Shown in pieces: positions 7,580-55,481 of a stretch of 64,000 nucleotides of DNA (position 1 is the first letter of the stretch; each line of letters opens with the position of its first letter). A program made the translations under genes and the position numbers. The notes under the pieces are model-generated. The model ran no database searches and was not told where the DNA came from. It worked only from the letters and a program-made list of their open reading frames with translations. Location of the stretch: NCBI GenBank assembly GCA_028713535.1, contig JAQTOC010000003.1, forward strand, positions 7,556 through 71,555, in the 5' to 3' direction. Source of the DNA: Candidatus Nanoarchaeia archaeon. Its GTDB lineage: Archaea > Nanobdellota > Nanobdellia > SCGC-AAA011-G17 > JACPNG01.

Positions 7580-8401
7580 TTAGTCCAGTGGACTTTTTAT
7601 CTTTTTTATTTGCTCTTGCGAGACATGAGTATAAATTTGTGTGGTGCTTAACTGCGAATGCCCCAGCAGTTCCTGTATCAACCTTATATCTGTCCCGTTC
7701 TCCAGTAAATGTGTAGCAAAGCTGTGCCTAAGCGTGTGGGGTGTAACCCTTTTCTTTATTCCTGCCTTCATGGCAGTGTTCTGGATTATTTTTTGTATGT
7801 TTCTCGTCGTCAAAATATCCCTCCCTTGCCCAGGGAATATCCAAACATTTTCGCTCGGCAGCGTTTGAAGATATCTTTCAAGCTCTTTCAGGACTTTCCC
7901 TCCAACAATTGTCATTCTGTCCTTGCTTCCTTTTCCAGCTTTGACTCTTATTGTTTTTTCCTTGAAATTAATTTCATCGGTTTTTAACCTGACAAGCTCA
8001 GAGACTCGTAACCCCGTGCTGTAAAGCAGCTCGATTATTAATTTGGTTTTTTGGGATTTTGCATTTTTAATCAATAAAAATATTTCATCTCTGCTTAAAA
8101 CTTCCGGGTTTGACTTTGGGATCCTAGGAGTCTTCAAATTAATTATGTTTTTCTTTAAGATTTCATCATAAAAAAACTTCAGTGCACTTTTTTTCAGAGA
8201 AACACTTCTTGGTTTTAGCTTTAAGTCAGATATAATATAGCTCATATAACTTTTAATATCAGATTCAGTCACTTTATCCGGCTCTTTTTTTATATAATCC
8301 AGGAACAGCTTATTGTGCCGCATATAAGAGCTGAGCGTCTCTTTGGAAAAACCCCTTAGCTTTAATTCAACCTCTAGATTTTTTAACAATTTTTCACCCA
8401 A
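7580..8401 (-). CDS. xerA: tyrosine site-specific recombinase, XerA/XerC/XerD family
   Basis: C-terminal catalytic box 'HTLRHSFATHLLENGTDIRLIQELLGHSQLSTTQIYTHV' (R..HxxR..Y), 273 aa, typical of archaeal XerA. Confidence 0.85.
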   Translation of the reverse strand: MGEKLLKNLEVELKLRGFSKETLSSYMRHNKLFLDYIKKEPDKVTESDIKSYMSYIISDLKLKPRSVSLKKSALKFFYDEILKKNIINLKTPRIPKSNPEVLSRDEIFLLIKNAKSQKTKLIIELLYSTGLRVSELVRLKTDEINFKEKTIRVKAGKGSKDRMTIVGGKVLKELERYLQTLPSENVWIFPGQGRDILTTRNIQKIIQNTAMKAGIKKRVTPHTLRHSFATHLLENGTDIRLIQELLGHSQLSTTQIYTHVSQEQIKKIKSPLD

Positions 8402-8546
8402 CTCTCTTATAAAATCACAAAATATAAATGTTTCGCTTAATTTTTCAATAATAAATCATTTTAGTACTAAAACTTTTTAGCAGAACCCGTAACTTTTTCC
8501 CTTTTTTCTTTATCATCTATTTTAACCTTAATTATTATTTATTTTT

Positions 8547-9365
8547 ATGTTTAAATCCTTAAAGAGCATTGTTGATTCCTCACTCGACTGGAACGTGCAG
8601 GGTAATTTTCTGACAGAAGTGAAAGAGAGGAATGACTATGGAAACTATTACCGAGGGATATTGGAAAATGTTCATTACCTTCGTGGAAAGGATCGCGGGG
8701 AAGGTAAACTAATCTTTGAAATAAAACATAGACACCACCCAATTATTAAAGATATTTCTGATGGCCTTTACATTGGAGATATTCGCCATGATCCTTACAG
8801 GCTATTCTTCGAAAAAGGGCTCAAAGTTTTTCTTAAAGGCAACATACGTGGCTCTATATGCAATGTAGAAGACCTGTGGGCTGAAGAGTCTTATTCTAAA
8901 CTAAATAATCCTCCAAAAAGAAACCTATTGGATTATATCCACCAGAACCATCAATTGAAAGGAAAATTTCTAAGAGGGGTAGTAGATTCACACTATCCTT
9001 GTTCCAATTATTGGGGAATATTAACTGACGTCGTTGATATGGATTCAGAAATGAATGGAACTGGCAGGGTATTATTCCAGATATCCAGACGGATTCATAC
9101 CAATGATCGTTTGCTATATAACCAATTATTTAACTCAGGCGATATAATCTTAATAAATGCCTATTTTAACAAGAACATGTTGTGGTTTGTGAATGATTTT
9201 AAGGTTATTGGCCAAGCCCAGGAAAATATTGTTTCTCACTCTTATCTTAAGAAAGAGATCCTCACTCCAAAACCATCTCCACAGCTTCCTAAGGAAAATG
9301 TTAGACAGCAAACCCTGTGGGAAAGACCTAACAGAAATCTCATTTATCTTCCAAAAAAACCATAA
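8547..9365 (+). CDS. hypothetical protein with two internal repeats of an ~90-aa module
   Basis: Repeat 1 'YRGILENVHYLRGKDRGEGKLIFEIKHR..GLKVFLKGN' vs repeat 2 'YWGILTDVVDMDSEMNGTGRVLFQISRR..IILINAYFNKN'. Confidence 0.5.
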   Translation: MFKSLKSIVDSSLDWNVQGNFLTEVKERNDYGNYYRGILENVHYLRGKDRGEGKLIFEIKHRHHPIIKDISDGLYIGDIRHDPYRLFFEKGLKVFLKGNIRGSICNVEDLWAEESYSKLNNPPKRNLLDYIHQNHQLKGKFLRGVVDSHYPCSNYWGILTDVVDMDSEMNGTGRVLFQISRRIHTNDRLLYNQLFNSGDIILINAYFNKNMLWFVNDFKVIGQAQENIVSHSYLKKEILTPKPSPQLPKENVRQQTLWERPNRNLIYLPKKP

Positions 9366-9419
9366 CCTTTTCAGTATTTTATCATAAACTCTTTTTAATA
9401 AAACTTCATTGAAGACCTT

Positions 9420-9875
9420 ATGGATGAATATGTTAATCTAGTAGGTATCTTTGTCCAAGGAGAGATCCTTCCACCCAACTTAGACAACTCATTCTTTATT
9501 TATAAGGAAGGGACATATAGGGGAATTCTCAATTCTAAACAAGGAGAAAGAGTTTTATTTGAGATTTCAGGAAAGATATCTGTTCTTGAGAGTTATAATA
9601 TTATTCTTGAACCAGGTTGTACCCTTTATCTAAAGGGATATACAAATAAAAAGCTGTTTAGGGAGGGAAATCCACAAGACCCCATATTTTATGTTAAAGA
9701 TGTTGTAAAAGTGAGACCTGCAGGTTTAGAAGAAGAAGTCGATGAGGGATATGAAACCCAGTTAGAAGAGCCTACCAAGTATGAACCTCCATCAGAAGAG
9801 TCCGCCCTTGAAAATAAGTACTTAGGCGAGAATTATACTCCCAAACTCCCAAGAAGGAGAAACACTCTGTTCTGA
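9420..9875 (+). CDS. paralog (single module) of 8547..9365 with acidic C-tail
   Basis: 'YRGILNSKQGERVLFEISGK...TLYLKGYTNK' parallels the upstream gene's module. Confidence 0.5.
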   Translation: MDEYVNLVGIFVQGEILPPNLDNSFFIYKEGTYRGILNSKQGERVLFEISGKISVLESYNIILEPGCTLYLKGYTNKKLFREGNPQDPIFYVKDVVKVRPAGLEEEVDEGYETQLEEPTKYEPPSEESALENKYLGENYTPKLPRRRNTLF

Positions 9876-9919
9876 TAAAAAACAATAAAGTTTTTATATT
9901 TTATAATTTTCTAAATTGC

Positions 9920-10231
9920 ATGAAACGTTCGTTCATCAAAGCACCTTTATACGTTCTTACATTGGTTCTGCTTCTTATGTTGATTCTAAACTTAAGAGCA
10001 AAAGCACTTGGAACCTCGTTTGGCTCTGACTGGATGACCTTGAAGATTCTTATTGCAATATTTTTAGCATGGATCTTTTGGCTCAGGTCTTACTTCAAGG
10101 AAAAAGAAATAAAAAGAAAAGCTCTTGAAAAAGGCCAGGAAGTTGCAGAAGCAGAAATGAGATATGTTAACTTTGAGTTCAAATGGTTCTTGATACTCAT
10201 TGTTATTGTAATCCTGATATTGATTATCTAA
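9920..10231 (+). CDS. membrane protein (103 aa)
   Basis: Three hydrophobic segments. Confidence 0.4.
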   Translation: MKRSFIKAPLYVLTLVLLLMLILNLRAKALGTSFGSDWMTLKILIAIFLAWIFWLRSYFKEKEIKRKALEKGQEVAEAEMRYVNFEFKWFLILIVIVILILII

Positions 10232-10448
10232 TAACCGAGCCAGTTTTGCTCTAAAAGCCTGGCTTTTTTGCTTAAAATTAAGGATTTATTATATAAGGTT
10301 CGCTTAATGGTGCTTATGCGAATGTTTATAAATTCTTGATTTATTGGTATTTTGTACAAATTTCACAAATAACACGGTTTACCAACCTTAATCAGAATTC
10401 TCCTTTGAAAATCAAAGGGCTGGGAGAAACCGGAAAGGAGCTGAGCAT

Positions 10449-10730
10449 ATGAATCTTGAAGAAAAGATTGAAATATACAGGACTAAACGATATTTCATAA
10501 TCTTGTTAGGGATATTGGGGATACTCATCTTTGGGGTTACAGTACTATATCCGGTTTTGTATAAGACAATACCGCCGTTTTTTCCATTACTTGCCCTCTT
10601 ATCTCTATTATTTATCATAGTATGCATCTTGGGTTGGTATTATGCTTCTAAAGAAATAAAAGACCTCAAAAAGAGTTTGCAAAAATTGGAAAAAACGAAA
10701 ATAATTACAAAACTCAGCAAAAAAGACTGA
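10449..10730 (+). CDS. small membrane protein (cassette member 1)
   Basis: 2 TM; strong RBS GGAGCT/GGAGG upstream; C-terminus ...LSKKD. Confidence 0.45.
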   Translation: MNLEEKIEIYRTKRYFIILLGILGILIFGVTVLYPVLYKTIPPFFPLLALLSLLFIIVCILGWYYASKEIKDLKKSLQKLEKTKIITKLSKKD

Positions 10731-10742
10731 AAGGAGAACTAA

Positions 10743-11105
10743 ATGGAAATCAAACTTAGAAATGGGGAAACAAAGATCCTTGAATCTTTAAACCTCAAAG
10801 AAACCGAAGACGTTTTGGAGTACTATTCATCCAAGGTAGCAAATCTTCTAATTGGAGGGGTAGTTGACGCATTTTTTGCAGCAATGGTGTTTGGAATTAC
10901 CTTTCTGCATATGTCTTATTCTACTCCAAATACTCTTAACTTTGGGTTATCCATCGTGGGTATCCTGCTATTGAGTTTTTTTGTTGTAAGGGGAACTCTT
11001 AAGCTAACAAAGGCATCCATGATTTTTCCAACTCCAAAGGTTATCAAAGAACAAATAGTTCAACTCGGAGGTGGGCAACTAAACAAAAACAAACAAAAAA
11101 GCTGA
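10743..11105 (+). CDS. small membrane protein (cassette member 2)
   Basis: 2 TM; preceded by ACTGAAAGGAGAACTAA-ATG; ends ...KNKQKS. Confidence 0.45.
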   Translation: MEIKLRNGETKILESLNLKETEDVLEYYSSKVANLLIGGVVDAFFAAMVFGITFLHMSYSTPNTLNFGLSIVGILLLSFFVVRGTLKLTKASMIFPTPKVIKEQIVQLGGGQLNKNKQKS

Positions 11106-11116
11106 AAGGAGGCGTT

Positions 11117-11404
11117 ATGGGTACAGACTATGCAGACAATCCTTATACTTCTGAGGTTACACAAAACGGGGTTGTTGTGTGGGTATTCCTGAACATCCAT
11201 CATCAGTGTTGGATTTTTAAACCCTATGACTCATCCGGCAGACTGATTCCCTGCAAACAAAAGAAAGTACCCCTTCTTCATAACGCTGAGAGAGGAGATG
11301 GACGGAGAATTATCCATAGGGAGGACAGAATCAATTTAGAAAAAGAGATAAAGAAATTTATTCTCGATCTTCCAAACCAACCAAAAATCAGCAAAAAAAG
11401 CTGA
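11117..11404 (+). CDS. small soluble protein (cassette member 3)
   Basis: Preceded by GCTGAAAGGAGGCGTT-ATG; ends ...KISKKS. Confidence 0.4.
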   Translation: MGTDYADNPYTSEVTQNGVVVWVFLNIHHQCWIFKPYDSSGRLIPCKQKKVPLLHNAERGDGRRIIHREDRINLEKEIKKFILDLPNQPKISKKS

Positions 11405-11423
11405 AGAAAGGGAGGAGAAGATT

Positions 11424-11657
11424 ATGTGTCAAACACATACTCCTGAAGGACATAAAGAAATCCAATGTCCTTGCGGAGCTTTGATAGATCAAATGCGTAA
11501 TAAAAGTTGTCCAAGATGTAACAGGAGGCAGTGCCCTTCTTGCAAATGTTATAATACTGAAAGGTACAAAACTACAAATACAGATGGATGGTCTGACAAT
11601 GAATTGGAATATTACCACTGCAAGGATTGTGGAGCCAGCTGGACTGATTGGATTTAA
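11424..11657 (+). CDS. Cys-rich zinc-ribbon protein (cassette member 4)
   Basis: CPCG..CPRC, CPSCKC, CKDCG motifs; preceded by GCTGAAGAAAGGGAGG..ATG. Confidence 0.5.
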   Translation: MCQTHTPEGHKEIQCPCGALIDQMRNKSCPRCNRRQCPSCKCYNTERYKTTNTDGWSDNELEYYHCKDCGASWTDWI

Positions 11658-11781
11658 TGAACAAATGAAGGATTATATCTAATGTTCTATCCGTCAGTTT
11701 TACTGACGGTTTTTTAATTTATAATGTATATATAATCATATCCTATAAATCTTGTCATGATGATCAAAGTCTTCAAGGATA

Positions 11782-12021
11782 TTATGATCTGTATTTTTTC
11801 TTAAAATCCTCAATTGTTCCGATATGGATAGCTTTTTGTTTCTGGATCTTAAGAAGTTTTTCTACATACTCTGGCCTTAATTCAGGCTCTAAGATTACAT
11901 CCTGGTATTCCTTAGCCATCTTGTTTATTGCCTCAGATTTATCCTTTAAGGAGTACTTTGCTTTTAGAATATTTAAGACTTTATTTGCATCTTCCGAAAT
12001 GTTTACGATAGCTTGAACCAT
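11782..12021 (-). CDS. small hypothetical protein (79 aa), antitoxin-like/RHH-like
   Basis: 'MVQAIVNISEDANKVLNILKAKYSLKDKSEAINKMAKEY' resembles small DNA-binding antitoxins; no adjacent toxin seen. Confidence 0.35.
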   Translation of the reverse strand: MVQAIVNISEDANKVLNILKAKYSLKDKSEAINKMAKEYQDVILEPELRPEYVEKLLKIQKQKAIHIGTIEDFKKKYRS

Positions 12022-12076
12022 ATTAATATGGTATTAATAAAGGTTTTGGTCGGATAATATATGTTATGCGAAAGAA

Positions 12077-12772
12077 TTATTTAAGTAATTCTAGAAGAAT
12101 CGTAACCAATAAACTTAGGAAAGCTAATCCCCCCTCCACCCCCCAAGTCCATTTAATCCATCCCATAAAAGATGAAGAAGGAAAATATTGTATTTCAACC
12201 TTAATCCCCTCTTTTTTTAGTTCTTTTTTGATATTTTCAAAAAGGGCTATAGAAGAAATTCGAATTAATTCATAATTATACAAGCTTAGCCCCTTTTGAA
12301 GGGAATGTAAGTCTTTTTTGAGAGTTTTTTTATTCAGATTTATAAAAAAGATATATTCCTCCAGAAGATGTATATTTATCCTAAGAAAAGCTAAGACCTT
12401 TCTTTTATAACCATTCCATCTGAATGTTGAAAATTTGGATATTCTTTTTAATCTCTGGAAAATTAGTATCTTTTGATCTTCTCTTAAGGGGGCGGCAACA
12501 GGCCTTTGGATTACAGATTCGAATAGGTTTTGAATTCGAGAAGATACCTTAACAAGTTGTATGCTTCTCCCAAGCGTTGCTGCAAAGATTAGTAATATGA
12601 TATATCCAAAGAGTAGGGGGATAAGAGGAGGGATTTGTAGTTTATTAAAGAAAACAACTATGGATGCAAGAAACATAAAAGATAAAAATGCCACCCCTAA
12701 AAAATAAATAACCTGAACCAATTTTCCATGTTTATATATTTTTCTTATAACCCCAAAATCTTCAAATTTCAT
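12077..12772 (-). CDS. membrane protein (231 aa)
   Basis: Multiple hydrophobic helices at both termini. Confidence 0.5.
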   Translation of the reverse strand: MKFEDFGVIRKIYKHGKLVQVIYFLGVAFLSFMFLASIVVFFNKLQIPPLIPLLFGYIILLIFAATLGRSIQLVKVSSRIQNLFESVIQRPVAAPLREDQKILIFQRLKRISKFSTFRWNGYKRKVLAFLRINIHLLEEYIFFINLNKKTLKKDLHSLQKGLSLYNYELIRISSIALFENIKKELKKEGIKVEIQYFPSSSFMGWIKWTWGVEGGLAFLSLLVTILLELLK

Positions 12773-12853
12773 TATTTTAGATAAGGATATCTCATTTAAA
12801 TGGTTTTAGTAATTATGCTAAAATTATTTAAATAAGGAGGTTATAATTAGAAT

Positions 12854-13228
12854 ATGTGGAATTTAAATTATGAAGATCCGAAGAAATTTCATATAAGCCT
12901 TGGATTGGGTTTAATGTTGGCTGCAGGAATATTAATTTTTGGGAATAACTGGGCGTATTATACAGAAATATCAGATATTTTAGAAAAAGATTATTCTTTT
13001 TTGTATGAGCTGGAAGAAGGGGAAGAAGAAACAACTCCCAATTTTTCTATCCAGGCTAAATCTGTTTCGTTTAGATTAGAAACTCTCCAAAAGGTAATAG
13101 ATGCGAGAATGGATTTTATGTATACTCTTTTTATTATGGGAGCAATTTCTTTTTTGGGAGGATATGTTTTTTGGATTTTCCCTTATCTTAACGATTTCTT
13201 TAAGAGAATATTTAATAAAAAGAAATAA
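12854..13228 (+). CDS. membrane protein (124 aa)
   Basis: 2 TM flanking an acidic loop. Confidence 0.45.
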   Translation: MWNLNYEDPKKFHISLGLGLMLAAGILIFGNNWAYYTEISDILEKDYSFLYELEEGEEETTPNFSIQAKSVSFRLETLQKVIDARMDFMYTLFIMGAISFLGGYVFWIFPYLNDFFKRIFNKKK

Positions 13229-13260
13229 ATCTTTCGCATAATCCCTCTTATCCGAACCAT

Positions 13261-14336: not shown

Positions 14337-14627
14337 CTAGTTTCTTCCAGCTTTTTTTATCATTCCACCGACGATAAACAAAACTACTAATATGATTATT
14401 CCTGCCCACCAGACCCAGAGTATGTCAAACAGGCCTACTATGAATGCCACAAGTCCAAGGATCTGCAAGATCTTTCCTATGGTGATTAATAATGGGCTCT
14501 CTGGCTTCCTTGCTGGAATGTATTCTTTGAGGTCTGGAACCGGTTCGATTATTTGTTTAGCCTTGACAGGCTTTTTTGTTGCTCGTTTTTTTGCTGCTTT
14601 ACGGGTAACTTTCTTTTTTGTAGCCAT
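14337..14627 (-). CDS. small protein with Lys-rich basic N-tail and 2 TM helices
   Basis: MATKKKVTRKAAKKRATKKPVKAK then hydrophobic helices. Confidence 0.45.
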   Translation of the reverse strand: MATKKKVTRKAAKKRATKKPVKAKQIIEPVPDLKEYIPARKPESPLLITIGKILQILGLVAFIVGLFDILWVWWAGIIILVVLFIVGGMIKKAGRN

Positions 14628-16586: not shown

Positions 16587-17472
16587 TTTTTAATAGCCAC
16601 TTATGATAGTCTTTTACTGCCTCTCTAAATTTCCATTCAGCCTTGAACTTAAGGTATTTTTCAGCTTTTTTTGTGTCTGCCTGCGACAAATTTTGATATT
16701 CTTCATAGGGATTCTCTATATACTCAATTTCAAAATCAGTTTTCATTGCTTCGTTTAAGGCATAAACTATTTCGCTAAAGTTTATTTTTTCTCCAGTGCC
16801 GACATTGTAAACCCCTGAAGGGGCATCTAAAGCCAATAAGTTTGCTCTGACAATGTCCTTGACATAAATCTGGTCTCTTGCCTGTGTCCCTGGCTTGAAC
16901 AGTCTTGGAGTCTCTCCATTCATCATGGTTTTTCTTAAGTGATACACCATTGATGCAGGCCTTCCCTTGTGGCTTTCTCTTGGTCCAAAAACATTAAAGT
17001 ATCTTAAACCAACTATATGCATTTTTTTAAAGTATGTTTCAGCAATCCTGTCCATTTCAATCTTGGATCTTGCATAGTCTGTCTGGGGGTCTTTTTCCTG
17101 GTCTTCTTCCATTGGGCATGGGCCGTTCCCATAAACAGATGCAGATGAAGCATAGACAAGTTTAGCATTGTCTTTTAGTGCAATATTAATGACATTATTG
17201 AATCCTTCAATGTTTTTTTTGAAGGTGTCTCCTCCCTCATATCTTGGGTCAGTTATTGCTGCCTCATGGAATATAACATCGAATTTTTCTCCAAGATCTT
17301 TTTTCTTGCATATATCCCATTCAATAAATCTTCCTTTAAACCCCCTAAGATTTTCTTTTTTCCCAGTAAATAAATTATCAACAACAACAACAACTTCATG
17401 GCCTTGTTTTTCCAGTTCTAAAACAAGATTAGATCCAATAAACCCTGCTCCACCAGTAACGAGACATTTCAT
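16576..17472 (-). CDS. hldD: NAD-dependent sugar epimerase, ADP-L-glycero-D-manno-heptose-6-epimerase-like
   Basis: N-terminal Rossmann 'MKCLVTGGAGFIGSN', catalytic YxxxK 'YARSK', SDR extended family; context. Confidence 0.75.
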   Translation of the reverse strand: MKCLVTGGAGFIGSNLVLELEKQGHEVVVVVDNLFTGKKENLRGFKGRFIEWDICKKKDLGEKFDVIFHEAAITDPRYEGGDTFKKNIEGFNNVINIALKDNAKLVYASSASVYGNGPCPMEEDQEKDPQTDYARSKIEMDRIAETYFKKMHIVGLRYFNVFGPRESHKGRPASMVYHLRKTMMNGETPRLFKPGTQARDQIYVKDIVRANLLALDAPSGVYNVGTGEKINFSEIVYALNEAMKTDFEIEYIENPYEEYQNLSQADTKKAEKYLKFKAEWKFREAVKDYHKWLLKNGE

Positions 17473-17473
17473 A

Positions 17474-18037
17474 TTAATCCCCCTTTAAAATCAGTTCCAC
17501 CGCATTATATAAATCTTTTTCTTTAAAGTCTGGACTGACTTTGTAGCCTCTGTCCTTTTTCCCTGCGTGCCCTGTTTCAACCAGAATTGTTTTGCATCCT
17601 GCATTTTTTCCAGCCAAAATGTCACAAAGATCATCTCCTATCATCCAGGAGTTTTTCAGGTCAATATTGAACTCCTTTTTTGCTTTTAACAGCATCCCTG
17701 GCTTTGGTTTTCTACAACTACAATCCATGTCAAAATCAGGGTGATGCGGGCAAAAATATTCTCCGTCTATCTTGATGTTTTCTTTGTTTAGCTCAGACAT
17801 AAAGTGCTTGTTAAAATCATGAAACTGCTCAAGTGTAAAATAGCCTCTTGCAATTCCAGACTGGTTTGTGATAATTATAACCTTGTATTTGCTTTTGTTT
17901 ATTTTTTTAAGTGCTTCCAATGAATTGGAAATGAAAATCAGGTCTTCTTTCTTATGGAGATAGTCTGTATTTTCATTAATTACTCCATCCCTGTCCAAAA
18001 AAATTGCTTTATTCATTTTTGAATAATTCTTGCTCAA
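17474..18037 (-). CDS. gmhB: D,D-heptose 1,7-bisphosphate phosphatase (HAD family)
   Basis: HAD motif I 'FLDRDGVIN', Zn-binding Cys cluster 'CPHHPDFDMDCSCRKPKPGM' characteristic of GmhB. Confidence 0.85.
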   Translation of the reverse strand: MSKNYSKMNKAIFLDRDGVINENTDYLHKKEDLIFISNSLEALKKINKSKYKVIIITNQSGIARGYFTLEQFHDFNKHFMSELNKENIKIDGEYFCPHHPDFDMDCSCRKPKPGMLLKAKKEFNIDLKNSWMIGDDLCDILAGKNAGCKTILVETGHAGKKDRGYKVSPDFKEKDLYNAVELILKGD

Positions 18038-39187: not shown

Positions 39188-39598
39188 TTAACAGACCCAT
39201 TCACAGATTTTTACATTTCTAAATTTAGAAGCTTCGCAATTATTCTTCGATTTCATACTATTACAGGTTTTCCCAAATTGTTCTTCTTTATCTGGATCTC
39301 TGGTCCTACAATAACAACCGCTTCCTCCAGCGCCTCCCCCGGGACCCCCACCAACTCCAACAGAGGACATACTTTCAGAAGCAAAACTCCAAAAAGCATC
39401 CCACCAACCTCGACTATAAGCTTGTCCAACAACATTCCCCTCTTCGTCATAAACTGGTTCATAATTTGTTTGAGCTTCATGAATACCGATTGTAACTACA
39501 GCAACTATTGCAACCAAACCAACTACAAGAATATAAGGTAAATATCCTTTGCTTTCCCTCTTTTTTGTTTTTTTCAAAATAATCGCCTCCTTTATCAA
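39188..39598 (-). CDS. membrane-anchored Gly-rich protein (136 aa)
   Basis: N-terminal TM; 'GVGGGPGGGAGGSGCYCRTRD'; Cys-containing C-terminus. Confidence 0.45.
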   Translation of the reverse strand: MIKEAIILKKTKKRESKGYLPYILVVGLVAIVAVVTIGIHEAQTNYEPVYDEEGNVVGQAYSRGWWDAFWSFASESMSSVGVGGGPGGGAGGSGCYCRTRDPDKEEQFGKTCNSMKSKNNCEASKFRNVKICEWVC

Positions 39599-40590
39599 GT
39601 AAGGTATAAATAACTAAACTCATAGATTCTATTTAAAGTTTCCGAATTCATTAGAACAAAAGTTTCTATGACTGCACCAATCAAAAACAAAATAAAAGCA
39701 AAAACAAATACCCAGTAATAATCTGTGAATAGTTTGTAGCTTTTAGCATTCTCAAACAACCTACTTAGTAAATAAACCAGCAAAAAGGTTAAGCCTATTG
39801 AAAATATTTTTAATAATAAGAACTGGTCAAGGTAATACAAAACCATATAGGCTCCAACAAAGATTAATATTGAAATTCCAAGTATGCTGAAGAATTTCTT
39901 GACTTTTTTTGAGTTGGTGATTAACAATGAAATCTTTGCTCCCGAAACCGCAGCAAAGACATAAGCCAAGCCCTCAAAAAAGAAATGTGGAAGAGTAATC
40001 AAAAAGATTAACAACAAATAAAGCCATGCACTCTCCCCAGAGTATAATGCTGCAGTTAATGCCCTATACCCAAACAAAGTCCCCCATGCAGACGCATTCC
40101 AGATGATAAAAAATATTCCTCCTTCAACAAAAAACAAGCTTAAGACAAAGCAGGCTAATAAAACCCAGAAGTTATTCATGAATATGCTTCCCATCAAACT
40201 GAAATCAAACGCACTCCCTCTCAATGCAGGATCAACGAACAGTTGCTCTTTTAAAATGCTTGATGTATCGAATCCAATCTGCGGCAAAACAAACGAATAA
40301 ACTGTAAATACTAAAAATACTCCTAAGAAAATCACAAAATAACTCCAGATGATGTTTTTTGTTAAAAAATAAAACCTCAAGCAACAATTATTTCTGGTCT
40401 TATTTTCTTTTTCAAAAATCTTTTTCATAATCGGCAAGAACAACAATGAAATAAACACAATTGCAACCAGTCCAGAATTTGCTCCAAATAATAATCTTGA
40501 AAGTGCCAATCCAATTGCAGAATAAGCAACAGAGATTAAGAATAACCACCTCTTTTTTATTTCCCTAGCAAAAAGCCGTTCAAAAACCAT
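39595..40590 (-). CDS. polytopic membrane protein (331 aa)
   Basis: ~8 hydrophobic helices; overlaps downstream gene by 4 nt. Confidence 0.5.
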   Translation of the reverse strand: MVFERLFAREIKKRWLFLISVAYSAIGLALSRLLFGANSGLVAIVFISLLFLPIMKKIFEKENKTRNNCCLRFYFLTKNIIWSYFVIFLGVFLVFTVYSFVLPQIGFDTSSILKEQLFVDPALRGSAFDFSLMGSIFMNNFWVLLACFVLSLFFVEGGIFFIIWNASAWGTLFGYRALTAALYSGESAWLYLLLIFLITLPHFFFEGLAYVFAAVSGAKISLLITNSKKVKKFFSILGISILIFVGAYMVLYYLDQFLLLKIFSIGLTFLLVYLLSRLFENAKSYKLFTDYYWVFVFAFILFLIGAVIETFVLMNSETLNRIYEFSYLYLT

Positions 40591-49529: not shown

Positions 49530-52500
49530 TTATAATTTAATGCTTAACTTTTCAGAATATTCTTTTCCGTCTATTTTTACTTTAATCGAGAATGTGTACC
49601 ATCCGCCTGTTTCAAATCTATCTAAATTAATGACTAACTGATTATTGTTTTTTATTTCAACATCAACCTTAAACATGTTTGCCGTAGCTTCAGCAGACTC
49701 AACATCTGTGTTGAGGTCAATTGTTAATTCCTTTCCATTAGAAGAATATTTTTTAATTAGTTTTTCATTGCATTTAGTATTCTCACAGCCAAACACACAT
49801 TCCTGGCTTGTTTTTAATTCATTGCTTTCGCATTTTATGATGCTTTTTTTATCATCGCTGCATTTAAGTCCTCCTTCCTTTAAGCCACTGCATCCATCTT
49901 CTTTTGCTTCCTCAGTTTTTTCAGCAGCAACCTCGCTTTTTTTCTCAAAGACATCGCCATGATCCCCTTCACTCCTGTAATCTTCTTTTCCTTTTCCAGC
50001 TTCAAGATAAATGAATCCGGTCTGGTAATATATTTCTGCTCTAAGCTCACTGTTCTGAACAGAATCCAATAATGCCTGCAATTCTTTTACGCTTTTTGTG
50101 TTTTTAATCTCGCTTAACTTAGTCTCTTTCTCTTCATCAGTCAGGGCAGTTATTCCCTTGTTCCTTAAATTTTCTACCTTTTTCTCTTCAAGATAGGAAG
50201 ATACATTTTCATAATTGCTAAGTGAGTCAAGACTAAAGCTTCTTGTGTCTAGCCAGCAGTCTCCAAGCGCAATCCCGTTGCTGTCTTTTCCGCAGCTTCC
50301 AGCTCTTCTCCAATAATCGTTCTCAGAATTTCCATCTGGATCATTAACAGAACAAATTCTCCTTATGCTGTCGGTGCTTGATCCAACTCCAGTTATGGTG
50401 TCCAGACTTTCTTCAATCTTTGATTTTTCTTCAGGAACACACTCTTCTTCATTTGTAATTTCTTTTGTTGCTTCTTCAGCAACAGCGTCGTCCTGCAGTT
50501 TATTTAATGCATAATCTGTTGTTACCCTTCCAAATCCGCATTCAGTTACCTCATTTATTTCAATGCACACCTCTTCAAAGCCTTCCCCTGCCACAGTATC
50601 AACATTCTTTGTGACATAGCCTCCATATTCTATCTGGCCTTTTGATTCGCTTGTGCTTCCTTCATCCCCAAATGTAACATAATGCCTTCTTCCAGTGCTG
50701 CTGTCTCTTAAATAGACTCTGTAGCTTAACTGTGTTGGTGCATTTGCTTCCTGTGTTGTTCCTGCATATATGTGGAAGAACACATTGTATTCATTTGCTC
50801 CAAATTTCTCACTGTATGTTTTTGAGCTTAATGTTGCTATGTATTGTGGTGGATCTCTTGGATTTACCAGTTTTGTTATAAACTCTCCAAGATTTGGTAT
50901 TGATCCAGTAACAACACCCTTGCATAACTCCATTTTTATCTGGGTTAATTTTGTTGATTTGTAAGATTGATCTACAATTGTTCCATACTCGCTTGTGAAA
51001 AATTCAACACTTTTCAATGCGGTTTCATAGCTGCTTGAGAAGTCTAGGTATTCTCCCCCGCCATCTGTGCTACTGCTGCTAATCATATTTCCATTGAAGA
51101 AATTGCTGATAAATTGGGTTGCTCCTTCTGCTTCTCTCCAGAAAACATCACAAATGTAGATGCTTTGTATTTTGTCGCATAAACCTACACTCTTTCCGTC
51201 TTCTTTTTGTGTTGTCAAGCAATCTTTTCCTGATTGGAATATAGATCTTATGTTCTTTAACCCAGCTAATATTCCTGTTGCACAAACAGGGAGTATGTCT
51301 CCAGAACCTTGTGGCAATACAATAGATCCGATAATGCCGGATCTTACTACATCCTTGACATACCAGTTGCCGCCTGCATTAAATCTTGAGACAGGGCATA
51401 CGATTGGATCGCATACATTGAATAACATTTTGCAGTCAGAGACACTCATCGAATCTGTGCAGTGGCCTATTGCTTTGTTTAGTTCTTTGTTTGCAGCATT
51501 TGTTTCGCAGTTAAACCATTTTCCGTCTTTGCTTTTTATTCTTTGTCCTTGTGTGCAGGTCTTTAATGAGTTTACATATGTCTGATACTTTAATAATTTG
51601 GAGGGTTCTTTTTCCTTTAGGAAACTGCTGCTCTCTAAACTGATGTCATCACCAGTGCATAATTTTCCGTCAGGGCCAACATTGTATGAACTGATTTCTC
51701 CTGCGCTTCCGTCAGCAAGTTGTTTTGTGACTTTTAAGTATACTCCTTTCTCATAAGGAACGCAGTAGGGTTTTCCGTCAGAGTAGAATTCTGCCGCAGC
51801 ATTCTTGTCATAATCTTTTCTTTCCCCTTTGTTGTCAGTTTCTTTTAGTACTAAATAACAGCCATTACTTGATGTGTATAATGAAGAAGCGCCAACAATC
51901 TTATTTAAATTCCCGCTGACATCCACACGATTAAGATCATTTATTGTTTGTACAGTTTTTCCTTCGTTGTCTACAACAAACCCAACCCCCTTTCCATTTT
52001 CAATTACAACCTCTGATATCGAGCCAGTTATTTCTTCGCATCCAACAGGTTTTTTATCTGTATTTGCCTTCCATTCTGACTGTCTTTTCTTGAAAGTCTC
52101 TGAACTTTGTGATTCAAGGCTGCTGTAAACAGTGTCGAATATTTTCTTTTTGTTCTCGTCGCTCTTTATGTCCTCTCCGAATAGGCTTTTAACCTCTGAA
52201 TATATCTCATTCTTTTTCTGCACGCTTTTTATTAAAGTATCCTTTTGTTTTTTTATTGTTTCAAAATATGCCTTTTCTTTTCCGCTGGTTCCATCTGGTT
52301 TATTATTGAGTATTGAGTTTAAGAAGAGATATTCTTTAACTTCATCGCTGTCAACCGTTAGTTCCTTTCCATTTTCATCAATTTTTGCTTCTTTTGCAAG
52401 ATCGCTATAAGCTTGTGTAGAATAAATGTTCCCATCTTTTAATGCATCATTGAAATCCTCTATTTTCTCATCTACCTCATCAATAATATTCTCTGCAAAC

Positions 52501-55481
52501 GCTCCTGTTTCAGTCAAGCACTTATCGTAGCTTTCATAGTATTTTCCGACCTTGCTTACAGACTCCAGATTTATGTTCATGATGCTGTTAGTCTGACAGA
52601 ACTCTTTTATTCCCATAACATTATCGTAGCCATTCATTACAACACTTCTTGCATCAGCTTTGTTCCCCAGCAAGAAGTTCTTGGCTGTTATGAACATGAA
52701 TGTTGCACCGCAACCAATAGTCCACCCCTTTACTATGTCTTCTGTTTTGTTAATAATTCCATTTAAGCTGTCTATAACAGAGTCAAGATTGTCTATATGG
52801 GTATCTAATTCCTCTGTTGTTAAATTAAATAATTTAATTCCCTTGTCAATTGGTATGTTTACATTGAACTCACTTGTGCTGTACACATTTGCTCTCCCAG
52901 GGATTATGGAAATCTGGGCTGCCTTGATTGCTTTAACTTCTTTAAGCTCAACTTCAATCTCCTTGCCAGAACTGTCCTTAATTTTTTCTTCTTCGTTTAT
53001 TTTTAATGTTTTTGAATCATCAGCTTTTGCTGATGGAAAATGATATCCGTTTTTTAATTGTTCAGAATTTTTGTTGTAGTTGCTGTTTCCAAGGAGGGCG
53101 TTTTCTAGCTGGTTTCTCAATTCAATTATTTTTTCGACATAAGTTTCATCTGCTGCTTGTTTTTCGCCGTCACAGGACATTCCATTGTATAATCTCAGTG
53201 CTCTTTCCCAACCCTTGTAATTTTTCCACGTTTCAATATAACTTGTGCAGTATGTGTTGTCCTTTAATCTGTCAACCATTGAGTTGTAGCTTGTTGCATC
53301 TTTGGTTTTTTCATATTTTAATTTTAGGAACTTAACTCCTGCTTTGATGTTTTCCTCAGCATCAAACCTTATATCCTGTTCCTTTGTTTTTTCAGATTTG
53401 CTTAGCTCAGCCAACTGTTCCAGATATTTTTTGTTATCTATCTTATATGCACAGGTTGATTTTTGTCCTTCAAGCTCCTTGTAGATATTTTCATCTTTTA
53501 TCCCTGCCTCATTTGCTGCCCCAGGCATTAACTGCATCAAACCCACTGCGCCGCAATAACCCTCGTTTGTTTTTGATATTGCTTTTGTATCAAATCCGCT
53601 TTCAATAGCAATCAGTGCTTTTACCAGTAATGGATCAACATCATACTCCTTGGAATATTTTAGGATTAAACTGTCATAATCATTTTTTATTGTTCTCCCG
53701 CCTATTTGTGTTGCACTTATTGCAATATCACTTTCTGTCAAAGCAGTTGGGTTTTTGATGTAATCCCCTGTTGTAATAATGATATTCTTGTCATTTATCT
53801 CAACAACCTTGTAGTCTGTTCCCTTTAATTTGGCTGATATCCCATAACTGTCTACTTGGTTGTCAACACTTACTTTTGCAGAAGCTCCAACCTGTTTTTT
53901 TATTGTTTTTAGCTCGATAATTGCTTCTTCTCCGTCAATATCTATGTTTTCTGAGGATGAGACCGTTGTTCCAATTGCATCCTTGAGATATTCTCCGTAC
54001 ATTGGAAGCAAGGCCGGATTTTTTATGTTTCCTAGCTCATCTAAAATCCTGCTCTTGAAAGAGTTGACATCATCCAATTCATTTGCATTTGTTGCTTTTT
54101 TTATTAAGTCCCTGTAAGCTAAGATAATCTGTTCTGTATATCTGTCCCAATCGTCTGCATTAGATATGACATACTCTCTTGCCCTGTTGAAGTTTGCGAT
54201 GGCTTCGCAATCCAAATCAAATGTTAAATCACTTTCAGGGTCTGGATTGCTTTTTGATCCTGAACATGGATTTACATTGCTGTAAGTTTGTTCATTTTTG
54301 TTTATTATTAAATTAATGGTCTTTTCTTCTTTTTTGTTGGTTAGTTTAACCTCTCCAGATTCATCTTCATCTTTTATTTCTTCAACAAACCAGTCTGTCC
54401 CAGATATGTAATTATTTTCAAATGCTTCAATTATGTTTATCTGATCTTCTTTGTATATCTCAAAAATTGCGCTTTTGCCCAACGAGTTAAGTATGCTGTC
54501 AAGCCTAACTCTTATCGTATCTGTTGCAGAGCTGCTGAACAATGAACTAAGTCCGCCCAAAGACATTGCAGATGTAGTCTCGCCAACCTTTAATGTTTGG
54601 AGTCCGCCAACAGAAGTTAATGTATTGTCATAAACCTGGATTGTTGCAGAATCATCCTCTATATTGTCTAGTCTTACATAATAAGCTCCATCTAAGAAAG
54701 AATCTTGGTAAGTTGAATCAATTCCTTCTGCAAAAGAAGTTGCTCCCTGATCTGTTCGTCTGCTTAATTTTTCTGTTAACGAAGTCCAGATATTTCGCAG
54801 CCCCTCAGTAACTGTTCTGGATTCCCTTGACGCATCTCCCGCGAACTCATCTTTGCTCTTCTGGTATATCAATTTTGTTAGTTGTCCATAGTTTAAGGTT
54901 CTGGCAGTACTAAACTCAATCCTTGCACTCAGGTTTAAGTCTATATTCTCTGGGATTTGATCTTCACTGCTGAATTTATTTAGCTCAATAATAACAATCC
55001 CAAGATTGTCTAAATCATTGTATTCCATTGTGCCAAGTGCACTTTTGATAGGAGACAATTGATCTAGATAAAAACTGGTTGGGGGGTAATAATCAATGCT
55101 TTTTATGTATGGATTGTATGATAGTGGGGTTATTATAATGTTATTTATTGTAGGAACTCCGATTGTGGGTTCGCCTGTGGAAATCTGTTCCCCCAGGAAA
55201 CTCCCGAGAGTGTTTCCACTAAGGTAAACAAACACAGGAACATTTCCTTTTGTTAATAAATTGCTGCTTAATACATTTGGTTCATAATCAGTAGGATAAA
55301 CATTTATTGCCTCTCCTAAATTATCATAGTAGCTTAATCCGCTTCTTATCGTGTCTGTGGAAGCATATCTTGAAATTGTCTGGCTGCTTCTTGAGCTTGG
55401 CTGGGTTCTTGTTGTGGCAGCAAATGATACATTGCTAAGTAAGAAAATTACTATCAATGTTATTGCAATAATCTTTTTCAT
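49530..55481 (-). CDS. giant secreted protein (1983 aa) with internal GH23/SLT lytic-transglycosylase-like domain and Cys-rich C-terminal region
   Basis: Sec signal 'SNVSFA|ATT'; SLT motifs 'ALIAIESGFD...GAVGLMQLMPGAA'; >40 Cys in C-terminal half; start overlaps upstream gene's stop (ATGA). Confidence 0.85.
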   Translation of the reverse strand: MKKIIAITLIVIFLLSNVSFAATTRTQPSSRSSQTISRYASTDTIRSGLSYYDNLGEAINVYPTDYEPNVLSSNLLTKGNVPVFVYLSGNTLGSFLGEQISTGEPTIGVPTINNIIITPLSYNPYIKSIDYYPPTSFYLDQLSPIKSALGTMEYNDLDNLGIVIIELNKFSSEDQIPENIDLNLSARIEFSTARTLNYGQLTKLIYQKSKDEFAGDASRESRTVTEGLRNIWTSLTEKLSRRTDQGATSFAEGIDSTYQDSFLDGAYYVRLDNIEDDSATIQVYDNTLTSVGGLQTLKVGETTSAMSLGGLSSLFSSSATDTIRVRLDSILNSLGKSAIFEIYKEDQINIIEAFENNYISGTDWFVEEIKDEDESGEVKLTNKKEEKTINLIINKNEQTYSNVNPCSGSKSNPDPESDLTFDLDCEAIANFNRAREYVISNADDWDRYTEQIILAYRDLIKKATNANELDDVNSFKSRILDELGNIKNPALLPMYGEYLKDAIGTTVSSSENIDIDGEEAIIELKTIKKQVGASAKVSVDNQVDSYGISAKLKGTDYKVVEINDKNIIITTGDYIKNPTALTESDIAISATQIGGRTIKNDYDSLILKYSKEYDVDPLLVKALIAIESGFDTKAISKTNEGYCGAVGLMQLMPGAANEAGIKDENIYKELEGQKSTCAYKIDNKKYLEQLAELSKSEKTKEQDIRFDAEENIKAGVKFLKLKYEKTKDATSYNSMVDRLKDNTYCTSYIETWKNYKGWERALRLYNGMSCDGEKQAADETYVEKIIELRNQLENALLGNSNYNKNSEQLKNGYHFPSAKADDSKTLKINEEEKIKDSSGKEIEVELKEVKAIKAAQISIIPGRANVYSTSEFNVNIPIDKGIKLFNLTTEELDTHIDNLDSVIDSLNGIINKTEDIVKGWTIGCGATFMFITAKNFLLGNKADARSVVMNGYDNVMGIKEFCQTNSIMNINLESVSKVGKYYESYDKCLTETGAFAENIIDEVDEKIEDFNDALKDGNIYSTQAYSDLAKEAKIDENGKELTVDSDEVKEYLFLNSILNNKPDGTSGKEKAYFETIKKQKDTLIKSVQKKNEIYSEVKSLFGEDIKSDENKKKIFDTVYSSLESQSSETFKKRQSEWKANTDKKPVGCEEITGSISEVVIENGKGVGFVVDNEGKTVQTINDLNRVDVSGNLNKIVGASSLYTSSNGCYLVLKETDNKGERKDYDKNAAAEFYSDGKPYCVPYEKGVYLKVTKQLADGSAGEISSYNVGPDGKLCTGDDISLESSSFLKEKEPSKLLKYQTYVNSLKTCTQGQRIKSKDGKWFNCETNAANKELNKAIGHCTDSMSVSDCKMLFNVCDPIVCPVSRFNAGGNWYVKDVVRSGIIGSIVLPQGSGDILPVCATGILAGLKNIRSIFQSGKDCLTTQKEDGKSVGLCDKIQSIYICDVFWREAEGATQFISNFFNGNMISSSSTDGGGEYLDFSSSYETALKSVEFFTSEYGTIVDQSYKSTKLTQIKMELCKGVVTGSIPNLGEFITKLVNPRDPPQYIATLSSKTYSEKFGANEYNVFFHIYAGTTQEANAPTQLSYRVYLRDSSTGRRHYVTFGDEGSTSESKGQIEYGGYVTKNVDTVAGEGFEEVCIEINEVTECGFGRVTTDYALNKLQDDAVAEEATKEITNEEECVPEEKSKIEESLDTITGVGSSTDSIRRICSVNDPDGNSENDYWRRAGSCGKDSNGIALGDCWLDTRSFSLDSLSNYENVSSYLEEKKVENLRNKGITALTDEEKETKLSEIKNTKSVKELQALLDSVQNSELRAEIYYQTGFIYLEAGKGKEDYRSEGDHGDVFEKKSEVAAEKTEEAKEDGCSGLKEGGLKCSDDKKSIIKCESNELKTSQECVFGCENTKCNEKLIKKYSSNGKELTIDLNTDVESAEATANMFKVDVEIKNNNQLVINLDRFETGGWYTFSIKVKIDGKEYSEKLSIKL

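Follow-up and report, generated by a model that had tools for sequence, protein, structure and literature searches.

A small-protein operon among dif-like sites beside xerA in a Candidatus Nanoarchaeia archaeon, with possible exchange at two levels

The four-gene operon and its junctions

We analyzed a stretch of 64,000 nt (here referred to as the window) from the metagenome-assembled genome (MAG) of a Candidatus Nanoarchaeia archaeon (locus tags PHT54_..., Logan run SRR22315509) and focused on four consecutive open reading frames (ORFs) for small proteins, ORF1 to ORF4, and on the variable island beside the recombinase gene xerA in which they lie. The G+C content of the window is about 35%, and it represents chromosomal DNA because an archaeal LonB, aminoacyl-tRNA synthetases and five tRNAs are encoded in it. 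Related loci were available for comparison from two MAGs of the same study, L002 (STA_51, 73% identity) and L003 (STA_39, 72%), found by a scan anchored on arginyl-tRNA synthetase (ArgRS), and from L234, a 4.1-kb contig of the Joint Genome Institute (JGI) that was reached through the 90%-identity cluster of a 103-aa protein of the island and is a closer relative of the window. All results on sites and modules are based on these four genomes, and those on the exchange of single ORFs on the window and L234.

The four ORFs that a first-pass annotation of this DNA had marked, with 93, 120, 95 and 77 aa, are all present at its coordinates, and their bodies are of the types it had described. ORF1 and ORF2 possess two hydrophobic spans each, ORF3 is soluble and ORF4 is rich in cysteine, with Cys2 plus the groups CxC, CxxC, CxxCxC and CxxC. 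The three basic C-termini (...LSKKD, ...KNKQKS and ...KISKKS) had also been read correctly. A strong Shine-Dalgarno (SD) sequence indeed precedes all four ORFs, but the GGAGG reported for each of them is found before ORF3 and ORF4, while ORF1 and ORF2 have AGGAG. SD sequences of the AGGAG/GGAGG type are present in about 12 of the 74 window genes, four of which are the ORFs of this cassette, and outside the cassette merely 3 of 21 closely coupled genes carry one of the GGAG/GAGG type. Most genes of the window have no SD at all, and their starts follow A/T-rich sequence at a distance of a few bases; they are probably leaderless.

The four ORFs make up a single operon bounded by terminators. About 180 nt of non-coding DNA lie between the upstream terminator and ORF1, and the spacers between the ORFs measure 12, 11 and 19 nt. 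The codon-usage scores are 0.09 for ORF1, 0.13 for ORF2, 0.00 for ORF3 and -0.21 for ORF4, compared with 0.24 +/- 0.13 for the window genes; such low scores, together with the atypical SD sequences, suggest that the operon was acquired recently. The predicted fold of the 5' untranslated region (5'UTR) has a z of -1.3, which is not significant, and Rfam gave no match there; anti-SD pairing or a riboswitch in this region was rejected on these two results.

Three of the four ORFs had been said to share one junction sequence. The likeness is real, although it is looser than claimed: the 17-mer AAAAAGCTGAAAGGAGG occurs exactly at 11096-11112 alone, and the other two junctions deviate from it by three mismatches. 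With up to three mismatches allowed, this 17-mer gave five matches (three of them in the cassette) where 0.72 were expected. When 30 nt around the stop codon were aligned, each of the three cassette pairs was identical at 19 of 30 positions, a value reached by only seven of 2701 gene pairs in the window, so that the three pairs are all among the top seven and the likeness goes beyond chance. The segments 10708-10731 and 11382-11405 even match at 21 of 24 positions. All three genes at the junctions end with TGA (the stop usage of the window is TAA 49, TGA 17 and TAG 8), and the distance from the stop over the SD to the ATG is 11-19 nt. A 12-nt direct repeat of the linker, AAAAAAGCTGAA, stands on either side of the ORF3 unit.

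The comparison with L234 revealed conserved linkers between changed bodies. L234 keeps the start of the island, site A (24/24), the 5'UTR (89% identical), ORF2 and site B, the two sites being members of the dif-like family described below. The slot of ORF1, a protein with two transmembrane (TM) spans, is occupied in L234 by an unrelated soluble ORF of 112 aa, and that of ORF4 by an unrelated ORF of 140 aa; ORF3 and the DUF2683 unit are absent. ORF2 alone is thus conserved in this relative, with an identity of 45% to the L234 protein ORF2' over the full length (E = 3e-30). Segment tests between the two loci gave z = 121 for the block of site A and 5'UTR, z = 68 for the first linker (J1) with ORF2, z = 11.5 for the third linker (J3) against the second junction of L234, and z of about 0-1.6 for the variable slots (1.6 for that of ORF1). 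J3 is identical to L234 3306-3322 at 17 of 17 positions, and the surrounding 60 nt are 78% identical, with unrelated ORF bodies on both sides.

In fact, when exact matches of the window operon to that of L234 are ranked by length, those at the top are all junctional, with 21 nt (AAAAAAGACTGAAAGGAGAAC) and 17 nt (AAAAAGCTGAAGAAAGG) followed by 14, 12 and 11 nt, and the longest exact run inside the homologous ORF2 body is 10 nt. The inverted repeat TCAGC-A5-7-GCTGA of the type 2 linker (J3) is present in both the window and L234. The 14-mer AAACTCAGCAAAAA ends the window ORF1 and the L234 ORF2' in different reading frames, so the conserved object is the nucleic acid and not a Lys-rich peptide; the basic tail, formerly regarded as a shared feature of the proteins, is probably a nucleotide element instead. 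Identity along the locus is mosaic: the 103-aa gene, the terminator, site A and the 5'UTR (10150-10432 against L234 2310-2590) reach 89-100%, compared with 60-74% for the adjacent genes, which suggests a recent exchange of this block or a strong constraint on its non-coding part. The first-pass proposal that ORF bodies are swapped between fixed linkers is thereby supported, within these two genomes, but it had missed the set of Xer-type sites that bound the operon and lie outside the coordinates it gave.

Dif-like sites and gene modules beside xerA

L002 and L003 carry xerA at the corresponding place, with 84% and 77% aa identity, and no paralogue of the gene is present within the window. The closest solved relatives of the xerA product are the XerA proteins of T. 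acidophilum (5hxy, 1.7e-49) and P. abyssi (4a8e, 4.9e-48). By way of a repeat shared by two plus-strand operons, we found a family of near-palindromic sites with the consensus TTCGCWTAA-N6-TTATSCGAA. Three full sites, A, B and C, lie within 3 kb and are all intergenic, while the chance expectation is 0.1-0.2 per 64 kb; a half-site (site 0) adjoins xerA, and L002 has at this place a full site with an 8-nt spacer (14374-14399, TTCGCTTAA aattagtc TTATCCGAA). Site B on the minus strand and site C on the plus strand have the same arm order, TTCGCATAA...TTATCCGA, and are mutually inverted, but the two arms of site A resemble each other. Of the 11 positions of the XerC arm in E. coli dif, 8 agree with the left arm CTTTCGCATAA. 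Sites of dif type consist of inverted arms of about 11 nt and a 6-nt spacer, with cleavage at the spacer borders (PMC2958812, PMC3646895, PMC8371274), and sites A, B and C have this architecture, with 9-6-9 cores that extend to 11-6-11.

These sites and their identity across genomes can be read from the aligned DNA, as can the homology breakpoints and the mosaic pattern around them. Site A is identical, including its spacer, at L002 16676-16699 and L234 2459-2482. Site C is identical at L002 17487-17510 and has one mismatch at L003 17012-17035, in three different contexts. A search for the generic palindrome ..TAA-N6-TTA.. in 389 kb of archaeal loci gave matches in xerA-linked islands only; more distant Woesearchaeota loci have neither xerA nor the sites at this position.

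The gene order from ArgRS to xerA on the left of the cassette is conserved in the window, L002 and L003. On the right, a gene for a protein of 96-100 aa and padR are present in all three, while a phosphoribosyl pyrophosphate (PRPP) synthase gene is shared by the window and L002 alone. What lies between these flanks is different in each of the three genomes. Homologues of the 272-aa and 103-aa genes come after xerA in L002, then a 115-aa gene (rejected as a positional homologue of ORF1 or ORF2) and a TPR gene, and the cassette is absent; L003 has other genes again, plus an intact pair of DUF2683 and ParE/RelE-like genes. The DNA from site A to site C measures 2.9 kb in the window and holds six genes, whereas L002 has a single TPR gene there. 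At site A, the identity of window and L002 is limited to the site and a few flanking bases, with both flanks unrelated. At site C, their left flanks are unrelated and their right flanks (the 3' end of the PRPP synthase gene) orthologous, and L003 presents a third context. To the right of site B, the DNA of the window and L234 is unrelated. The interval from A to C, the contexts of site C and the DNA right of site B therefore vary in the way described for modules bounded by Xer sites.

In module 1 the three genes have orthologues in L234 with 67%, 58% and 91% aa identity, and orthologues are also present in L002. The DUF2683/toxin unit abuts site B exactly, and L234 has no DUF2683 gene between its terminator and site B. 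In L003 the ParE/RelE-like gene is intact (17321-17593) and overlaps the DUF2683 gene (pair at 17092-17593); because of this pairing, the DUF2683 protein looks like an antitoxin. Moreover, L235, a contig of the L002/STA_51 island type, was found in the same sequencing run (Logan SRR22315509) as the window genome. Possible exchange partners thus coexist, since this contig has identical sites A and C and different modules.

Several further observations concern the same subjects. The first module beside xerA always contains a lineage-specific family with the motif Y(R/W)G(I/A)L...G.(K/R)(L/V)(I/L)F(E/Q)I, located at 8547-9365 and 9420-9875 in the window, 271-2036 in L234, 14794-15720 in L002 and 15749-16129 in L003; neither Pfam nor PHROG gave a match for it, and the motif is present twice in the 272-aa protein. 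No exact copies of sites A and C were found in viral contigs. In metagenomes the site pattern is common, among the matches listed, as single palindromes in bacteria of any GC; these are probably ordinary dif-type sites and do not extend the archaeal case. One metagenome contig (L136, 1-2426) carries a cassette array with three direct repeats of 164 nt (89-96% identical), each with a dif-like core and the spacer cagcgc; the single genes between them are a 145-aa ORF and one for a HAD hydrolase, and contigs L088 and L134 start or end in the same 164-nt repeat. Pairs of dif-like sites exactly 120 nt apart are present in the metagenome contig L135 (1326-1469) and the IMG/VR viral contig L222 (12503-12646).

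The proteins of the cassette were searched for families and homologues. None of ORF1-4 matched a Pfam, PHROG, NCBIfam or PADLOC model above any curated cut-off, including the models for defence and toxin-antitoxin systems, and no solved structure in the PDB was matched by sequence. The role in toxin/immunity or membrane stress that the first-pass annotation suggested is therefore a conjecture, neither supported nor contradicted by these results. A full HMMER scan of ORF3 against 1.84 billion representatives returned the self match and one artefact, a Calx-beta protein with 14 identical repeats each of which aligns to residues 6-27. The four proteins, combined into two concatenated queries against 5.8 billion proteins, returned self matches only, in a mode that is insensitive: this word-indexed search missed P0015, a full-length ORF2 homologue with 45% identity that is present in its collection. 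For this reason the absence of homologues is firm for ORF3 alone. The concatenated cassette had no match in viral, metagenome or genome contigs, and tblastn of the four ORFs had none in the fetched loci. ORF1 and ORF2, compared as possible paralogues, align with E = 0.006 over 35 residues only.

ORF4 is probably a zinc ribbon, to judge from its sequence. Its assignment to the C-terminal zinc ribbon of TFS/TFIIS is at best faintly hinted at, since the match to NCBIfam TFS_arch (E = 0.48, 11 bits) is below the cut-off of 64.75 (Pfam Zn_ribbon_TFIIS also gives E = 0.48) and Foldseek found nothing below E = 0.5. The single-sequence AF2 model of ORF4 has a C-terminal three-stranded sheet at a mean confidence (pLDDT) of only 54, that of ORF3 has a pLDDT of 59, and Foldseek was without a match for either model. 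As for function, we can offer with low confidence the guess that the cassette is a membrane-anchored accessory or conflict system around the conserved two-TM protein ORF2.

The features of the island are compiled in Table 1. Elsewhere in the window, a gene on the minus strand (49530-55481) encodes a protein of 1983 aa with SLT and glucosaminidase domains, which resembles a giant cell-wall hydrolase, in a DPANN archaeon. The 90%-identity clusters of ten flanking proteins contained short contigs only and were uninformative, and a protein search with PRPP synthase at a cut-off of 1e-30, which is too strict, returned the self match alone.

Table 1. Positions of the genes, linkers, dif-like sites and other elements of the island in the window (a point in the strand column: no strand assigned)
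Feature	Position	Strand	Description
xerA	7580-8401	-	Pfam Phage_integrase (9.5e-46) and Phage_int_SAM_4; only tyrosine recombinase gene in the window
Site 0 (half-site)	8431-8440	+	TTTCGCTTAA; beside the xerA start; right arm decayed
Module 1	8547-10231	+	Genes of 272, 151 and 103 aa: lineage-specific family and membrane protein
Hairpin with T-run	10238-10270	+	AGCCAG...CTGGCT TTTTT; ends the upstream operon, as read from sequence; conserved in L234
Site A	10299-10322	.	TTCGCTTAA tggtgc TTATGCGAA; dif-like 9-6-9 core, 11-6-11 with flanks
Promoter region and 5'UTR	10323-10432	+	TATA-like TTTATAAAT at 10325-10333; putative promoter; 89% identical to L234
ORF1	10449-10730	+	93 aa, two TM spans, basic tail; variable slot 1
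Linker J1 (type 1)	10719-10742	+	AAAAAAGAC TGA AAGGAGAAC; 21-nt exact match to L234 2934-2954, upstream ORFs unrelated
ORF2	10743-11105	+	120 aa, two TM spans; core gene of the operon, conserved in L234
Linker J2	11095-11116	+	AAAAAAGC TGA AAGGAGGCGTT; left copy of the 12-nt direct repeat
ORF3	11117-11404	+	95 aa, soluble, basic; absent from L234
Linker J3 (type 2)	11388-11423	+	TCAGC A7 GCTGA AGAAAGGGAGGAG; 5-bp inverted repeat spanning the stop codon
ORF4	11424-11657	+	77 aa, 10 Cys, probable zinc ribbon; variable slot 3
Terminator hairpin with T-run	11691-11715	+	CCGTCAG TTTTA CTGACGG; strong hairpin closing the operon
Toxin remnant	11736-11777	-	Last 14 codons of a ParE/RelE-like gene, LEDFDHHDKIYRI*
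DUF2683 gene	11782-12021	-	Pfam PF10884 (4.9e-10); 72% identity to the L003 copy; insertion relative to L234
Site B	12049-12072	.	Minus strand TTCGCATAA catata TTATCCGAC; same spacer at L234 3847-3870
Module 3	12077-13228	.	231-aa gene (-) and 124-aa gene (+), no family match; absent from L002 and L234
Site C	13233-13256	.	TTCGCATAA tccctc TTATCCGAA; between two convergent gene ends

Possible explanations of the island

We consider it fairly probable that the four ORFs are one real operon for small lineage-specific proteins, which has a promoter region and a long 5'UTR of its own and is carried as the cargo of a module bounded by Xer sites in a hypervariable island by xerA, and that this island is subject to two layers of exchange. 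In the layer of modules, XerA homodimers would bind the near-palindromic 11-6-11 sites, and recombination of two DNA molecules at sites with the same spacer (A with A, C with C) would replace the DNA between these sites. The unlike spacers tggtgc, catata and tccctc would keep the array from deleting itself and would still permit the replacement of whole modules. The DUF2683/toxin pair may have entered at site B, with a later deletion of the toxin; such an insertion agrees with the exact contact between the unit and site B and with its absence from L234. In the layer of ORFs, single units would be replaced, inserted or lost between the linkers of stop codon and SD, which are better conserved than any other sequence of the operon, most likely by homologous or microhomology-mediated recombination at these 12-21-nt linkers, which may at the same time serve termination-reinitiation coupling. 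The linkers appear to be the preferred joints of exchange, since they are the only sequence common to otherwise unrelated units. We infer from these comparisons that XerA acts on the sites, and likewise the recombination route at the linkers and the roles of the proteins. A wider version, in which a DPANN lineage maintains beside xerA a two-tier shuffling platform of XerA-exchanged modules with heterospecific dif sites and of linker-swapped ORF cassettes, as a chromosomal counterpart in archaea to dif modules or integrons, is more doubtful, and we propose it tentatively.

Several points weigh against this interpretation. Neither a product of recombination nor a circle or an alternative junction was seen, and the events are deduced by comparing sequences, in no more than four genomes for the sites and two for the ORFs. 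Modules flanked by Xer sites in A. baumannii did not excise in tests (PMC11705084), so flanking sites do not prove mobility by Xer. The arms of the sites are almost palindromic, and the orientation rules therefore give no discrimination. One of the sites may simply be the chromosomal dif. Chromosomal dif is described as a single copy (PMC8371274), which does not agree with the three full sites and one half-site within 5 kb; the cumulative GC skew, followed over stretches of only 21-64 kb in the window, L002 and L003, does not turn at the island in any of them. The coding scores of ORF3 and ORF4 are weak or negative and no homologues of them were found. Finally, the linkers are partly generic.

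This last point is the starting point of the reading that we hold to be the most serious competitor, though an improbable one on balance: an ordinary lineage-specific operon, whose junctions resemble one another because a Lys tail, TGA and SD are kept under selection for coupling, and whose gene content changed by illegitimate recombination and gene loss. Lys-rich tails are common indeed, with at least two Lys among the last six residues in 27 of 74 genes, and GGAGG is not enriched in the window. The SD core AAAGGAGGCG of the ORF2/ORF3 linker is also found at the junction of an unrelated operon near 39590 (39586-39600, minus strand, TGA T AAAGGAGGCGATTAT). The further linker copies that the first-pass annotation led one to look for did not appear either: neither linker has another copy in the 389 kb of related archaeal DNA or outside this operon, so the linkers are not a genome-wide element. 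However, it is hard to see from such selection why the 21- and 17-nt linkers should be the longest matches when the homologous gene is 60-67% identical with runs of at most 10 nt, why the breakpoints fall at linkers on both sides of two slots, why the tail nucleotides are kept across different reading frames, or why the three junction pairs rank in the top seven of 2701. The sites themselves might be read otherwise, namely as operators of a dimeric transcription factor that controls the island genes. Sites A and B do lie upstream of operons, with 126 nt between site A and ORF1 and 27 nt between site B and the start of DUF2683, the half-site is in the promoter region of xerA, and a PadR gene and a winged helix-turn-helix gene are nearby. 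We regard this as unlikely, because site C is flanked by convergent gene ends in the window as well as in L002, the distance from site A to the start varies (126 nt in the window and 45 nt in L002), homology breakpoints fall on the sites, and the arms of the sites resemble known Xer arms. Furthermore, the spacers are exact within a site type and different between types, as predicted for the core of a recombinase site and not for an operator.

Two other explanations concern the ORFs. ORF3 and ORF4, and perhaps ORF1, may not be genes at all, and the slots may be decaying or non-coding DNA downstream of ORF2 as the sole real gene. The coding scores of ORF3 and ORF4 and the empty HMMER scan of ORF3 point in this direction, as do the poor AF2 models and the fact that the Logan gene caller skipped ORF4, which is annotated by NCBI (PHT54_01375). 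But each ORF has an SD 5-9 nt before its ATG and together they fill the space up to a single terminator; alternative frames score below ORF1-3; full-length ORFs occupy the slots of L234 too; and the 10 Cys of ORF4, mostly in CxC and CxxC groups, compare with about two expected from base composition by a rough estimate. On this evidence the explanation has a small probability. Smaller by far is the probability of recoding at the A6-A7 runs that precede the stops, where frameshifting or transcriptional slippage would fuse ORF2 with ORF3 (-1) and ORF3 with ORF4 (+1). The frame of ORF3 is open for 38 codons upstream (11003-11116) and that of ORF4 for 24 (11352-11423), placing them in the top 3% and 8% of genes. 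Yet the equivalent junction of L234 is in frame with one TGA, the phasing X XXY YYZ of canonical slippery sites is lacking, and the downstream ORFs each have their own SD and ATG. We rejected recoding since the frame relations are not conserved in L234.

Comparison with known systems

The Xer/dif system of archaea has been described as a single-copy system for dimer resolution, and in the literature searched we found no report of archaeal arrays of dif-like sites that bound variable gene modules. If XerA does act on the sites, a housekeeping recombinase would double as a device for gene exchange in the genome-reduced DPANN archaea, which would help to explain the turnover of their many orphan small proteins, and the idea of dif modules would reach beyond Acinetobacter plasmids and across domains. 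The dif-like sites are a signature that is easily searched, and the swapping of ORFs bounded by linkers would be a concrete and testable case of new small genes entering an expressed operon.

Short conserved junctions with changing genes are known from phages. Lambdoid and other phages exchange genes in a mosaic manner at conserved sequences on gene boundaries, and the operon described here resembles them in that unrelated genes occupy one slot between short junctions that are better conserved than the genes. Unlike in lambdoid phages, the context is cellular and without phage genes, and the junction consists of stop codon and SD with an A-run, to which a 5-bp inverted repeat is added in type 2. 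SD-led translational coupling in archaea is another likeness, as AGGAG/GGAGG is complementary to the 3' end of 16S rRNA. However, most coupled genes of this genome manage without such an SD, and coupling alone is insufficient because the conservation extends upstream of the stop and across reading frames.

Integrons, including archaeal ones (PMC9668308), likewise have a tyrosine recombinase gene next to an array of exchangeable units, and the site or half-site that adjoins xerA may be compared with attI. The recombinase here is nevertheless of XerA type without the IntI-specific domain near patch III: the alignment of the 273-aa protein with XerA runs from end to end (its residues 19-267 pair with 56-308 of 5hxy), while IntI4 matches it only in two stretches and with a lower score. 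The sites are dif-like duplex palindromes of 24-28 nt with 6-nt spacers and not attC sites, which are imperfect inverted repeats with structure and far exceed a dif core in length, and a gathering-threshold scan of the window with Rfam gave tRNAs only. Moreover, the modules have their own promoters and terminators, occur in both orientations and may hold several genes. We therefore rejected an integron. The integrative mobile elements exploiting Xer (IMEX), such as CTXphi, TLCphi and the gonococcal island, which are integrated at dif, are similar in their use of the host Xer system and dif-like sites and in the arrays of sites that successive insertions produce, and the DUF2683/toxin unit adjoins site B in the exact manner expected after an insertion. 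Unlike IMEX, the modules are without genes for replication, phage functions or transfer, and the spacers differ strongly between sites.

The closest parallel lies in the dif (pdif/xrs) modules of Acinetobacter Rep_3 plasmids, which are accessory modules bounded by 28-bp Xer-type sites of 11-6-11 structure. In these, sites with the same spacer react and single modules are replaced, with a cargo that often consists of toxin-antitoxin genes and small orfs (PMC13141974), although the mechanism is disputed (PMC11705084). The island shares with them the kind of site, some decay of sites and fusion of modules (PMC13141974, PMC6449649), and, as we infer, the replacement of same-spacer modules between related replicons and the cargo of toxin-antitoxin genes and small orfs. 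The setting differs, being an archaeal chromosome here and bacterial plasmids there. One XerA with near-palindromic arms takes the place of distinct XerC and XerD arms, so that an alternation of C and D cannot be defined, and the array begins right beside the recombinase gene. Taken together, we read the whole as an archaeal, XerA-linked analogue of the Acinetobacter dif modules, with mosaicism at the level of ORFs inside the modules.

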